A DNA stretch of 64,000 bases. Source: Octopus vulgaris (Eukaryota). The notes under the pieces are model-generated. The model worked only from the letters and a program-made list of their open reading frames with translations, made no database searches and had not been told where the DNA came from. A program made the position numbers and the translations under genes. The stretch covers positions 23,126,001-23,190,000 of the forward strand of contig OX597835.1 of the NCBI GenBank assembly GCA_951406725.2, in the 5' to 3' direction. How positions within the stretch are numbered: position 1 is the first letter of the stretch; every line of letters starts with the position of its first letter. Positions 30,606-63,299 of the stretch are shown in pieces.

Positions 30606-30838
30606 TTACCGATCATGGCAATAACAGAGTTCATGGTTACACCGAGAGTGGGGGATATATGTAGTATTGTTTACTCTACCTTTGGAATTACGAGGGAACT
30701 CGCACTCCTCACACTTCTCCAAAGCCGGGTGGTTGAGAAATGTGCAGGCAGCACAGTTCCAGTGTTCTCCTTCAAAGTCATTCATTGGTAGTGTCGGAGG
30801 TGTTTCAGGGTGGCGTGGTGGTAGAGGAGGGGGGGTCA
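30606..30838 (-). CDS. TAB2: TAB2/TAB3-like gene, NZF (RanBP2-type) zinc-finger exon with stop codon
   Basis: ttttccattgcag|TG ACC CCC; encodes [28 protein letters not shown], nearly identical to the TAB2 NZF ([24 protein letters not shown]); TAA at 30608-30606. The five exons total 1494 nt (498 codons). Confidence 0.93.
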
Positions 30839-30859
30839 CTGCAATGGAAAATAGATAAC

Positions 30860-30916
<57 letters not shown>

Positions 30917-35130: not shown

Positions 35131-35341
35131 TGTCGATGTGTATAAATCATTGAAACATGGCTTACAAGTGCTTTGAGTGAAACATATATTCTGGTTTTTA
35201 TTTAATTTGAGTTGCATAGAAACCCCCTTATTACTCTAGCCCAGTGGTTCTCAACCAGGATCCATATGGCCCTTAGTGGGGGGCCCATATAAAATTCTGA
35301 TGTCGAAAAAATTTATTTGCAATGAATTAGTAATATCTCTA

Positions 35342-35778
35342 TAGTTGTATGCTGTCAACTTAATGTGACAGTCCCATGAAGGGAATCATACAACTGCTAT
35401 TTAGCCCTAGGAAGCAGCAACGCTTCCTGTCGGCTTTGACACATTTCCTGTGTCCTTATGTTTTCAAGGGGGAGATAAGCATCTCCACCCAGCTAAGCCT
35501 GCATCCAGAGACTAGTTTCCGAGTCTTTGCTCGTCATCAGTCTAGAGTAGCATGGCCTGCTAGTTGGAGATGCCTATCTAGCCTTTGCAAATATATAAGA
35601 ATTCTAGTGAAATACATTCACTGATTACGAAAACAGAAGTAATCCTAGGGTAAATAGCAGTAGTATGATTCCCTTCATGGGACTGTCATATTAAGTTGAT
35701 AGTATACAACTACTTTATTGTACCGTTACTGCATAAATCTCTCCGAGATATTTAGAAATGTATTATTTCTATTTTCAT
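35342..35778 (-). mobile_element. Non-autonomous hammerhead-containing element with long inverted repeats (probably Penelope-like derived)
   Basis: Inverted repeats at 35342-35412 and 35643-35712; inner hairpin 35473-35579 carries the ribozyme; flanked by near-duplicate 17-mers aattagtaatatctcta (35325-35341) and aatcagtaatatttcta (35779-35795). Confidence 0.7.
35504..35546 (-). ncRNA. Type I minimal hammerhead ribozyme
   Basis: Minus strand reads UCUAGA-CUGAUGA-CGAG-CAAAGA-CUCG-GAAA-CUAG-UC^UCUGGA. All core nucleotides present, stem I 6 bp, stem II 4 bp, palindromic ACUAGU stem III, GUC cleavage triplet (cut between 35510 and 35509). Confidence 0.85.
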
Positions 35779-35980
35779 AATCAGTAATATTTCTACAATA
35801 CACGAAGTATTTTAAAACTTTCTGTTTATACAAGTCCTAATATTTAATTGTCAAAATATACGATTTTTTAAACATCGAATGGTTAGGAGGGTCCATCTGA
35901 GTAAAATGGGAATCAAAAGGGTACACAGAAATAGTTGAGAAACACTACTGTAGCCATTGAGAACCCTATAAAACTATGTG

Positions 35981-45467: not shown

Positions 45468-46710
45468 TTAGGTTGTCCAGAAAGCTCTGAGCGTTTTTAA
45501 GCTAAATCTTTTAACACTTCATTGAACACACCTGAAACGTAACACAGTTAAAACTTCAGTGTTGTTTGAATTGGTAGAGCATCTCTACTTTGTTCCTGAC
45601 TAAAAATGGATTTATCTTTCATTCCGGTTTCCCCTTATTGACATTTGAAATGGATAACCCAAAAATTTCATATTTGTGTTGTAATGCTTTTCTTTTTTAA
45701 AGGAGAAAATGTTGCAAAGACTTGCAAAAACATTTGTGGAGTTTATGGTGATGATGATGCTGTAGGTGAATCAACTGTTCGAATTTGGTTTGCAAAATTT
45801 GAAGATGGAGAGTTTAGCTTGGAAGATGACAGTCAAAGTGGAAGACCTTCAAAATTGGATGGAGATGTTTCAAAGGGAAAAACTGAAGAAAACTCAAATA
45901 TCACGACCAGAGGACTTGCAGAGGAGTTGGAAGTTTCTAAAAGTATGGCTCATGAACACCTAGTGAAGCTAGGATACATTTCTCACAATAATGTATGGGT
46001 CCCTCACAAACTCTCTGAAAAGAATTGCTTAGACTGGTATTCCATTTGTGATATGCTGTTGAAACAGAATGAAAGCATGCCTTTTTTGAAACAACTTGTG
46101 ACTGGAGATGAAAAATGGATTTAGGGTAAAAAATATCCTGGAGCTTGCATAAGGATGCTCCAAAACAGCAACCAAAGACGAATATCCATGCCAAAAAGAC
46201 TATGCTTTGAGTTTGGTGGGATCATAAAGACATTATTATGAGCTTCTCCCACAAAACCAGACCCTTAATTCTGATGTGTACTGTTGTCAGCTGGCTAATT
46301 TGAACCAAAATATCGAAGAATTGAGGCCAGAGATTGCCAACAGGAAAGGGGTAGTGTTCCAACAAGACACTGCCTGACCACGTGTCTTTGGCTACCCAAA
46401 CAAAGTTACATGAACTTGGCTGGGATCTCTTCCACCATATTCTCCTGATATTGTGTCATCCAACTATCACCTGTTTTTGTCTCTACAGAACTCATTGCAA
46501 GGAAAAACATTTCATTTAGATGGAGTCAAAATGCATCTAGATTACTATTTTTCTTCAAAACCAGTCAAATTTTATGCCAATGGAATATTTAAATTGCCTG
46601 GTAGATAAGCAAAGGTCATTAGTAGTAATGGAAATTTTTCATTATTGAAAGGTCAGTTATTTATATCCCTTTTTGCATATTTAAAAACGCTCAGAACTTT
46701 CCAGACAATA
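45468..46710 (+). mobile_element. Mariner transposon, full length, inactive
   Basis: TIRs ttgtccagaaagctctgagcgtttttaa / ttaaaaacgctcagaactttccagacaa, flanked by TA; about 1.24 kb. Confidence 0.92.
45645..46645 (+). pseudogene. Mariner transposase pseudogene
   Basis: HTH region, WVPHKL, TGDEKW, VFQQDTA*PR (HDNARPH), PPYSPDIVSSNYHLF (YSPDLAPSDY), FYANGIFKLPGR*; stops and frameshifts. Confidence 0.9.
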
Positions 46711-57869: not shown

Positions 57870-59335
57870 ACATAAGATAGGAATAATTACAGAGGTATCA
57901 AATTGTTGGATCAGGTAATGAAAGTCAGAGAGAGAGTCATAGCCCAACTTAGGGCAACAGTTAGTTTAGATGAGTTTGGGTTTGTGTCATGTAAAAGCAC
58001 CACTGATGCTATATTTCTGGTAACACAGCTGTAGGAGAAATTCCTAGCCAAAGATAAACCTTTCTACTTGGCTTTTGTTGACACGGAGAAAGCCTTTAAT
58101 AGGGTCGCCAAGCCCTTATCTGGTGGTCAATGCAGAAACTAGGGATGAGTGGTTAGTAACAGCTGTACAAGCCAAGTACAGGGATGCTGTCAGTAAGGTG
58201 AGGGCTGGCAACAAGTATAGTGAAACATTCCAGGTAAGAGTAGGGGTCTATCAAGGATCAGTCCTCAGCCCCCTCTTATTCATCATAGTCCTCCAAGCAA
58301 TAACAATGGAATTCAAGACAGGATGCTCCTGGGAGCTCCTCTATGCTGATGACCTTGTTCTAATAGCTATGTTACTACCAGAACTAGAGGATAAGTTTCA
58401 GGTGTGGAAGCAAGGTCCAGAATGGAAGGGTCTTAGAATCAATCTAGCAAAATCCAAAGTCTTAGTAAGTAGGAAGGCAGACAAATTACAAATCCCTTCA
58501 GGAAGATGGCCCTACTCAATATGTAGGAAAGGCATAGGTAGAAACTCTATAAGATGTATCCGGTGTAGGCTACAGACACGTAAGAGGTGCAGCAATATCA
58601 AAGGACGGTTAACTGGGATGATAGTTTTTGTGTGCAGCAGATGCACAGGAGTAATAAACACAGTAAATGTGCAGAAAACTGATTCCATCACATGCCAGGG
58701 GGAAAACTTGAAGTAGTTGATAGCTTCCAGTACTTAGATGACCAAGTCAGTAGTGGAAGTGGAGACTGAGAGTGTAGCTGTTAGAATACGAATAGCCAGG
58801 GCAAAGTTCAGAAAGATCCTACCTCTGTTAGTAACAAAGGGCCTTTCACTCAGAGTGAAAGGTAGACTGTATGTGTGCAAACAGCCATGCTACACAGCAG
58901 TGAAACATGGGCTGTGACTGCTCAGAACATACGTAGGCTTGAAAGAAACGAAACTAGTATGGTCTTTTGGATGTGTAATGTCAGTGTGCATACACAATAG
59001 AGTGCAAGTGGCCTGAGAGAAAAGTTGGACATAAGAAGCATCAGGTGTGGTATGCAAGAGAGACAATTGTGCTGGGATCGTCATGTGTTTCGTATGGATG
59101 AGGACAGCTGTGTGAAGAAGTTCCACACCCTGACAGTGGGGGGGAACTTGTAAGTGGTAGACCCAGGAAGACCTGGGATGAGGTGGTGAAGCACGACCTT
59201 CGAACATTGGGCCTCACAGAGGCAATAACAAGCAACCGAGACCTTTGGAGATATGCTGCACTTGAGAAGACCCAGCAAGCCAAGTGAAATTGTAACTGTG
59301 GCTTGTGCCAGTGTCACATAACCGGTCCATTTAGG
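57870..59335 (+). mobile_element. 5'-truncated RTE-clade LINE (RT domain, Cys-rich insert, C-terminus), disrupted
   Basis: NYRGIKLLDQVMKV, STTDAIFLV, GVYQGSVLSPLLF, LLYADDLVL; stops and frameshifts. Confidence 0.92.
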
Positions 59336-61510: not shown

Positions 61511-61668
61511 TTTGTAAACTCAATACCTTAATAAAATGAAAATATTAATTTTAAAAATTGCATGAAATCACGTTTGAGAAGAAAAACAATCAATCATGAG
61601 AATATTGCATTTGTAAAAACAAAAATCACAATAAAAATAGTTTTAAAAAAAATTAAACAAAGACACAC

Positions 61669-62629
61669 CTTTAGTGTAAGCTTGATCATCTTGCGAAGTT
61701 CCAATAGGGTACACTAAGTTTTCAGATTGAGATGGCAAACCAGACACATTTGGGTTAACAGAATGAACATAGGTGTTCTTAGTTGGTCTGTAGTGTAAGG
61801 CTGTTTTACTGTTTATTGCAATAGGATGTTGGTGTTGAGAAACGCTAGGTGCATAACCATGCATGTTAGCAAATTGATATTTGAAAGGAGACTCAGCTAA
61901 CTGGTGATAATCTAATTGCTGAGAAATTTGAGTCGATGGGGAGTGCTTGGAGTTAACGTACTGTCCAACCAGACGTGGACTGTGGTTTCCAGTAACAGAC
62001 TGCGGAGAATAGGGACTTGGTGGCTGCGATCCATGCAGAGACGGCTGAGGCGAGTGCAAAGTACTAGTTACTGGATGCAGCATGCTAACTTGGTGATCAT
62101 ATTCAAGTAATTGGCCTTTGTTCATATTTGGGTGGGCCTCGATATAAATATTAGCATGAGTAGAATGCTGAGAACTGGAAGCAACAGGAGTGGACATAAC
62201 TAGTGGGTCAGCGTTCTTTTGTAGAGTTGGCCAGTGTAGTTTATCATTATGTGGACTGCTAGAATAGTTACAATACATTTGTGGCATGCTGTATTTATAA
62301 CTGTTCAGATCTACATCAGAAGTCTGAATGTGCTGAACAGAAATCTGTCGTTGGGGAGTGGTCGATGTTTTGCAGGTAATATGTGGAATCATACTGGAAT
62401 TTGGAACATGCTTATATTGATCGAAATCAACAATTTGATTTGAGTTTAGTTCTGGTGAATGTGAAGTAACAGCGCTATTTTTATTATATTTGGATGTCAC
62501 CGATGCTTGTGAGACATCAGTATTTTTAATTTCCAAATTCAATTTCTGCATGCTATTATTCACAGAGCTGATAGTATTAAGAGGGTTCTTATTCAACTCT
62601 TCCAGGCATTTATCCTTGTCATTGTTGAA
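61669..62629 (-). CDS. TAB2: TAB2/TAB3-like gene, large internal coding exon (end of CUE domain, Ser/Pro/His/Gln-rich linker, start of coiled coil)
   Basis: Acceptor tttcag|TTC AAC AAT GAC AAG GAT AAA TGC (FNNDKDKCLEEL, like the CUE end of vertebrate TAB2); open frame (ORF 61643-62596); ends QDDQAYTK-G|gtgtgt in phase 1, matching vertebrate DAAYTQALL. Confidence 0.9.
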
Positions 62630-63299
62630 CTGAAATATAAAAGAGAAAAGAATTAAGTTCTATATTGATGTGTGTGTGTGTGTGTTGTATACATAAGTAA
62701 GTTTTAATACAGAATACCAACCTGCTCATAACTATGGATATCAAAGCGTGACAAAGAGAAAAGTTGTGACGGTCTATATGTCAGCAAAAAACTCACTCAA
62801 AGAAATACTTTTGCTATGAGGAAGTCAAATAGTTTGGAGTAGACTCCTTTGGAGAAAGATGAAATGTTTATTGATGATGCTGAATAAATCGAAGTAATAG
62901 AATGAAATAGTGCTATACGTGAATACCAGTGACTAGGGAATTTTAAGAACATTGTAATAAGCAAGCAAAATATGTATATGTATTACATGCATCTTTTTCT
63001 TCACTTCTTAATTTCAAATTCAGACTTTTAATCCCACCCAATATTATGAAGAAATTGCTATCTCCCTGTCTGCTGGGAACACCACATATCTGAATAGTGA
63101 TTGTAACATCTATAATCATTTCATCTCTTTCACGAATAGTTCTGATTGAAACATTACAAATAGCTTCTTCCTCTAGAAAAAAAGTATGTGTATCATAATA
63201 ATAATAATAATATTGCCACTGTCTAACCCTCTTGCCCATCAGTCACTGAGTTAACCTTCTTAACCCCTTACCTATTATGTTTAAGACAGTAATCTGGGA

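Follow-up and report, generated by a model that had tools for sequence, protein, structure and literature searches.

Animal non-LTR retrozymes are small non-coding repeats that have already been proposed to be non-autonomous derivatives of Penelope-like elements (PLEs), and dispersed monomers of them have been reported (Li, Clavereau and Pollet, bioRxiv 10.64898/2026.07.22.740005). The nature of the enzyme that copies them into the genome has been argued from co-occurrence and sequence likeness (PMC7229834; bioRxiv 10.64898/2026.07.22.740005), and these papers are not known to describe insertion junctions in terms of two fixed ends, a tail and a target-site duplication (TSD). Where PLEs insert, they leave partial tandems together with a truncated copy in inverted orientation, and one of the two ends bears a tail (PMC8557442, PMC3846280). 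In work with a purified PLE protein, whose predicted form is dimeric, both target strands were cut and extended (Frangieh et al. 2024, PMC11167929). The protein initiates at two sites inside the RNA, between which the tail lies, and hammerhead cleavage is dispensable for it (PMC11167929). For the hammerhead ribozymes of PLEs, pairing of helix III between two copies has been described (PMC4209133).

We analysed a 64-kb stretch of Octopus vulgaris DNA (the window), which contains a hammerhead-bearing element. According to our best explanation, the element is an old, 5'-truncated and partly inverted copy of a non-coding repeat unit of 351 nt, probably inserted by target-primed reverse transcription with the RT/GIY-YIG protein of a PLE acting in trans; we assign this explanation as a whole a probability of about 0.82. 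Two pieces of the unit meet in the element. The forward piece (35342..35643, minus strand), which has the sense of the hammerhead, covers unit positions 1-302, differs by 5.0% from the majority sequence of its subfamily and has its 3' end at 35342, equivalent to end site A of the family described below, with no tail. The inverted piece (35643..35785, plus strand) covers unit positions 232-351 and then 1-24, and ends at or just beyond end site B (unit positions 11-13, corresponding to 35772-35774). Between the two end sites, a Penelope-type 'tail' (35713..35774, plus strand) is present on one arm only. The inverted arms (35342-35406 and 35648-35712) are 92% complementary over 65 ungapped nucleotides, and in the fold prediction their stem extends to about 70 nt. 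An earlier note on this DNA had marked these arms, as 35342-35412 and 35643-35712, and we recover them; they are not terminal repeats of the unit but the overlap of its forward and inverted pieces. The same note saw a 66-bp extension on one side. The extension is one-sided, but it does not end at 35778, and unit-like sequence runs to 35785.

The element has a far more stable predicted fold than shuffled sequences (z = -17.8 for the plus and -15.3 for the minus strand, with none of 100 shuffles equally stable). On the minus strand, a long imperfect hairpin belonging to the unit (35457..35595), with compensatory changes between subfamilies, bears at its tip a minimal type I hammerhead motif (35504..35546), in agreement with the earlier description of a nested hairpin tipped by a hammerhead. 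The core CUGAUGA begins at 35540, and cleavage is predicted after the C at 35510, that is, between 35510 and 35509. Helix I has 6 bp, helix II has 4 bp, and helix III is palindromic (ACUAGU). This is the sole match in the window of a motif scan requiring at least three pairs in helix II, and an Rfam search of the window gave no match at the gathering score. The type I core, the tiny palindromic helix III and a bulged base before helix II are common to this motif and the minimal hammerheads of PLEs (Cervera and de la Pena 2014, PMC4209133), unlike which helix I here continues into the long imperfect hairpin of about 140 nt. An RNA folded as a long stem with nested hairpins had been suggested; the hairpin is part of the unit, but the outer stem comes from the inverted insertion.

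The element has no recognisable coding capacity, as had been claimed for it. Its sole ATG open reading frame longer than 30 aa is an antisense frame of 82 aa (35376-35624, plus strand), which gave no match in a Pfam search and is open in 4 of the 62 family copies that span the region. In the 351-nt unit an ORF for RT and GIY-YIG is absent, and likewise any ORF conserved among these 62 copies. Elsewhere in the window we observed a zinc-finger exon (30606-30860, minus strand; match to TAB2/TAB3, E 1.4e-13) and a long minus-strand exon (61643-62659), and a TAB2/3-like gene likely holds the element in one of its introns, gene and hammerhead having the same sense strand. The window also holds fragments of a mariner-type transposase (HTH_48; 45642-46124, plus strand) and of a LINE-type reverse transcriptase (RVT_1; 58048-58716, plus strand).

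The insertion splits a host MITE (35242..35947) with short terminal inverted repeats (TIRs), which is about 250 bp long when empty according to its joined flanks. The host is flanked by an 8-bp duplication (35234-35241 and 35948-35955, one mismatch), and a duplication of this size with up to two mismatches flanks 9 of the 12 other host copies in which both ends were found, giving the host element the TSD of fixed length by which MITEs are defined. We take an 8-bp TSD together with such TIRs to be the hAT pattern, and thus regard the host as hAT-type, as it had been labelled before. A direct repeat of 17 bp with two mismatches surrounds the inserted element (35325..35341 and 35779..35795). We searched the genome with the right part of the host MITE, scoring the best 40 matches of 2100 candidates; a site resembling the 17-mer was present once in 23 of the 24 other host copies fetched, all without the interruption, and the 24th had no match to it. 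Since uninterrupted hosts hold the 17-mer once, the insertion duplicated all or part of it. The first seven bases of its right copy (35779-35785) match both the element (unit positions 18-24, 7/7) and the left target copy (6/7), so that the true duplication is 10-17 bp, its secure part on the left being 35332-35341, and the 17 bp reported earlier are its upper limit. The seven-base match between target and element at the right junction is likely a microhomology.

When the genome was searched with the element (best 40 matches scored of 3600 candidates), the extension was seen in many copies to follow the arm without a break and in the same orientation, and some copies ran on into the start of the unit again; extension and arm are therefore continuous parts of one unit. 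Mapping of the genomic copies gives a unit of 351 nt, circularly permuted among copies, with a GC content of 39.6%. The family is multicopy, so the possibility of a single-copy element, raised as a check, does not apply: an internal 21-mer of the unit has 808 exact matches in the genome (0 for the reversed control). As this 21-mer is exact in 68 of 144 units that were not selected on it, we estimate about 1,700 units, and the number of insertions at 1,000-2,000. A looser hammerhead pattern gives 869 matches versus 7 in controls, and takes in other families too. Most copies are dispersed pieces of less than 1.7 units, with frequent inversions, and the longest colinear run is 921 nt (2.6 units). 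Two cores are spanned at 10 loci, which remained from 17 pattern matches after 4 unrelated, 2 non-colinear and 1 duplicate were left out. Li et al. take two or more hammerheads in head-to-tail tandem as the mark of an active element; the window copy carries one core. At one locus (G000:C1:150061098-150064744) the family 21-mer is present in both orientations at a spacing of about 905 bp, which suggests that an inverted insertion was afterwards multiplied as part of a larger tandem repeat.

The unit falls into two large subfamilies (126 and 42 segments), which are 11.8% apart and each about 6% from their own majority, and three small groups. Judged by the median divergence of 5.6% from the majority, the family is old, and it looks inactive. 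Arms or repeats within one insertion differ by 8-10% on average, compared with 14-15% between loci, as expected if each insertion derives from one subfamily source. Assembled contigs from four runs with four organism labels (A, B, C and E) cover the unit and are uninformative about transcription, ends or circles; no record that contains the unit is listed as RNA. The earlier proposal of a short, non-autonomous, retrozyme-like family holds at the level of the unit, the attribution to cephalopods being that proposal's own label. The unit's length of about 350 nt lies within the range of about 170-400 nt for animal non-LTR retrozymes and compares with 350-390 bp in mussel (Cervera and de la Pena 2020, PMC7229834), and it has in common with animal non-LTR retrozymes its non-coding nature, low GC content, single type I hammerhead per unit, stable predicted fold and co-occurrence with autonomous PLEs. 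In contrast to the arrays of PMC7229834, two-core tandems are rare here and inversions frequent. By its unit the element qualifies as an animal non-LTR retrozyme with a predicted self-cleaving motif, and by its insertion footprint it behaves like a non-autonomous PLE.

The footprint was examined in two sets of loci. Set 1 consists of 89 loci. Resemblance to the window copy guided the choice of 30 of them, a selection that favours pairs of ends of both types, and an exact hammerhead pattern that of the other 59. Set 2 consists of 67 loci chosen by the internal 21-mer (70 were fetched and 3 duplicates dropped); it still counts one duplicate locus and one locus common to set 1. The 3' ends concentrate in two short stretches, site A (unit positions 296-310) and site B (5-17), which together make up 8% of the unit. 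Set 1 has 51 ends at A, 48 at B and 36 elsewhere (99/135 at A or B), and set 2 has 39, 34 and 21 (73/94). Several of the other ends lie at unit position 291 and are probably A ends of a diverged subfamily in which the alignment stops early. The distance between the sites, about 58 nt, is the length of the tail, compared with 30-40 nt in the PLEs of PMC8557442. Two outward-facing 3' ends are present in 46/89 insertions of set 1 and 27/67 of set 2. Where both ends of an inverted insertion lie at A or B, they are nearly always of different type: set 1 has 22 A+B, one B+B and no A+A insertions (17 A+B versus one same-type among its 75 hammerhead-pattern loci), set 2 has 16 A+B versus one A+A, and A+B thus accounts for 38 of 40 cases. 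In 24 of the 89 insertions of set 1 a colinear run exceeds one unit. Inner junctions often overlap by 1-8 bases, several of them using one short palindrome near unit positions 88 and 206, and most copies read through the hammerhead cut site.

Targets are often microsatellites or AT-rich sequence: a microsatellite lies within 30 nt of an end in 72 of 154 distinct insertions, as against 11% of 2100 background positions. Among the 82 non-microsatellite insertions a TSD was recognised in 26, compared with 0.3% of 300 mismatched-flank controls, and no clear TSD was found in the other 56. TSDs in the family are 8-17 bp long, mostly 12-15 bp, with a mode of 12, so that the 17 bp of the window are the longest; the fixed short TSDs at the inverted repeats that would mark an ordinary MITE are not seen. 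An ordinary DNA transposon of this kind with a chance hammerhead-like motif could account for the 65-70 bp inverted arms and the lack of coding capacity of the window copy. Across the family, however, arm lengths vary, ends are permuted, duplications have the range just given, and an inverted arm is lacking from roughly half of the insertions (43/89 in set 1 and 40/67 in set 2). These variable arms, permuted ends and duplications refute MITE identity for the element, a reading to which we give next to no credence, and they bear out the earlier view that the element is retro-inserted.

The same features are those of insertions of endonuclease-bearing PLEs (Arkhipova et al. 2013, PMC3846280; Craig et al. 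2021, PMC8557442; Frangieh et al. 2024, PMC11167929), which likewise show partial tandems, an inverted 5'-truncated second copy, a tail at one end, two start sites of reverse transcription, short and variable TSDs, AT-rich or microsatellite targets and a hammerhead inside the repeat. Because of this footprint we infer that the mobilising enzyme was a PLE protein, and the Penelope-type mobilisation put forward earlier fits the end structure of the copies.

Twin priming is an insertion mode of L1, a LINE. The non-coding unit could have been mobilised by another retroelement in this way, acting on a tandem RNA, and two details of the window copy would be expected from twin priming: its inverted arm stops close to the start of the forward piece, with an overlap of 24 nt, and target and element match at 6 of 7 bases. 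A PLE partner was, moreover, not found among the loci sampled. In most inverted copies, however, the arms would not lie next to each other on a tandem RNA, while their outer ends are fixed at A and B, and the unit includes no poly(A) or simple-repeat tail. We therefore consider mobilisation by a LINE or other retroelement very improbable.

Under target-primed insertion by a PLE, the PLE protein would nick both target strands about 12-15 bp apart, and each nicked 3' end would serve as a primer for copying the unit RNA into cDNA, with one start at site A and one at site B. Head-to-head joining of the resulting two truncated cDNAs, in many cases at a short stretch of common bases, would leave outer inverted arms that resemble the TIRs of a MITE and a tail on one side. 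The template would be an RNA running through the unit junction and the uncut hammerhead site, which would make it a multimer that escaped cleavage or a circle closed by re-ligation.

Alternatively, an autonomous PLE with a coding part that escaped sampling might be the source, and the copies would be its 5'-truncated ends (pLTRs). Their footprint is the same as that of autonomous PLEs (PMC3846280, PMC8557442), and coding flanks were checked at 161 of the estimated 1,000-2,000 insertions. At these 161 loci a PLE-like coding match occurred near 4, none of them arranged as an ORF followed by the unit, and no coding flank was shared; of the tandem copies and PLE links for which a search had been suggested, the former exist and the latter were not found at the loci searched. 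Upstream of unit position 1 the copies break off, turn into an inverted piece or run on into the end of the 351-nt unit, and never enter a common foreign sequence (sets 1 and 2, up to 2.6 turns). Two distant sister families, at 24 and 20 loci, likewise have no shared upstream coding sequence. Truncation from an autonomous PLE is accordingly an unlikely origin of the copies.

The genome contains many PLEs, with at least 148 GIY-YIG matches listed from 6136 candidates and an RT + GIY-YIG ORF of 781 aa that recurs intact. For likeness to the unit we examined 30 of the 148 listed loci and about 27 further coding loci. Comparison by blastn and a family HMM with 75 loci (57 PLE-coding and 18 with other hammerheads) returned non-coding sister repeats only. 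Unit likeness was absent from the 30 GIY-YIG loci, 6 longer PLE loci and 19 further copies of the PLE family adjacent to the unit at locus L019, and 22 loci with other hammerheads that have the same helix III gave no link to the hammerhead region of the unit. The 351-nt unit, unlike autonomous PLEs, has neither an ORF nor a sequence link to the PLEs sampled in the genome. It shares with the non-autonomous PLEs of Chlamys such as MRC1 (PMC8557442) the lack of coding sequence and the pLTR-like partial tandems, and probably also the dependence on PLEs. The Chlamys elements, however, resemble their autonomous partner at the 3' end, a likeness the unit does not show to the PLEs sampled, and they lack the canonical hammerhead that the unit has.

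Two candidates for a partner were rejected. Hammerhead variants with another helix II loop proved to be subfamilies of the 351-nt unit, and the copy at L019, which a TA run separates from a truncated PLE, is taken for a nested insertion. The PLE family at that locus (L019:1426-770, minus strand; L156-L175) has two 3' ends about 40 nt apart and inserts into TA runs, and retrozyme-type units abut it at L019 and L162. A separate, young PLE family (L150:906-4587, plus strand, and L151 on G000:C16) has the recurring 781-aa RT + GIY-YIG frame, upstream of which lies another frame, of 330-360 aa and with no Pfam match; motif scans of its repeat gave no canonical hammerhead.

The hammerhead core occupies unit positions 104-134 and is intact in 132 of 142 spanning segments, many of which had been chosen for their core. 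Where another motif served for the selection of copies, the core deviates at 12 of 404 bases, compared with 1187 of 9031 elsewhere, subfamilies being pooled. The predicted circular fold of the unit is stable in both main subfamilies (MFE z about -9.6 and -7.7). Over 87 confident pairs of this fold, we compared four groups with the main subfamily and counted 3, 0, 7 and 9 compensatory changes, where random placement of the same substitutions gave 0.6, 0.3, 1.9 and 1.2; the values of 3 and 7 have P of 0.02 and 0.0008, and 9 was reached in 0 of 5000 random placements. Three of the four groups consist of 3-5 segments from 2-4 loci each. The compensatory changes between subfamilies support selection acting on the modelled RNA fold of the unit. 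Helix III is always palindromic, in three spellings over subfamilies and sister families, and a fold prediction for two copies pairs helix III between the molecules; the hammerhead is thus predicted to work as a dimer.

Both sister families consist of partial tandems and inverted pieces. One (L162:2446-2201, minus strand; L153:5578-5808, plus strand; L193:5295-5118, minus strand; L303-L327) has a period of 353-355 nt, its palindromic helix III is longer, and about 47 nt separate its two 3' ends. The other (L104:17-274, plus strand, and L328-L347 in G000) has a period of 360-362 nt and is younger, its copies being about 97% alike. Positions 3 and 8 of the hammerhead core pair with each other, and in 24 of 25 matches of the younger family the core is UUGAUAA instead of CUGAUGA, a paired change at these two positions. 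Many older, unrelated hammerhead-bearing repeats have the same palindromic helix III (L283-L302, L192, L193); among them, L192 is a near-perfect palindrome of 2 kb with one core per arm.

A more specific version of the PLE reading is that the template is a ribozyme-made RNA circle of 351 nt, copied by a dimeric Penelope protein from both nicked strands simultaneously, at A on one and at B on the other, and that the unit is one branch of an ancient lineage of such circles that encode no protein, comprising three or more families (351-362 nt) whose hammerheads covary and renewed repeatedly without a genomic master array or a sequence-related partner. Taken jointly, we hold these propositions tentatively, at somewhat short of even odds. 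In the 21-mer-selected set, copy lengths do not peak clearly at one full turn, and 5' ends do not cluster at the hammerhead cut site. Over 112 positions we found no base differences specific to unit position (lowest P 0.016, uncorrected; few upstream units). The 2.6-unit copy L237 was rejected as evidence of rolling-circle copying: two of its units share private changes absent from the third, which points, at least for part of the copy, to a later local duplication.

In the titles and the opening lines of abstracts on octopus hammerhead ribozymes we found no description of the 351-nt family. The word 'ribozyme' is absent from the main text of an octopus repeat annotation (PMC13282606), whose repeat library may list the family, as may the supplements to bioRxiv 10.64898/2026.07.22.740005. 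What the window locus adds by itself is modest, since the class, the link to PLEs and the one-sided tail are in print and the family looks inactive. The family as a whole displays the full Penelope insertion footprint on a unit without an ORF, and in its inverted insertions a tailed end is almost always paired with a tail-less one. It also provides a warning that such partly inverted copies can be mistaken for MITEs. The two sites A and B are exact candidate start sites of reverse transcription on a 351-nt RNA, testable in the published PLE assay (PMC11167929). If the template was indeed a ribozyme-made circle, these copies would be direct genomic evidence of how retrozyme circles re-enter animal genomes.
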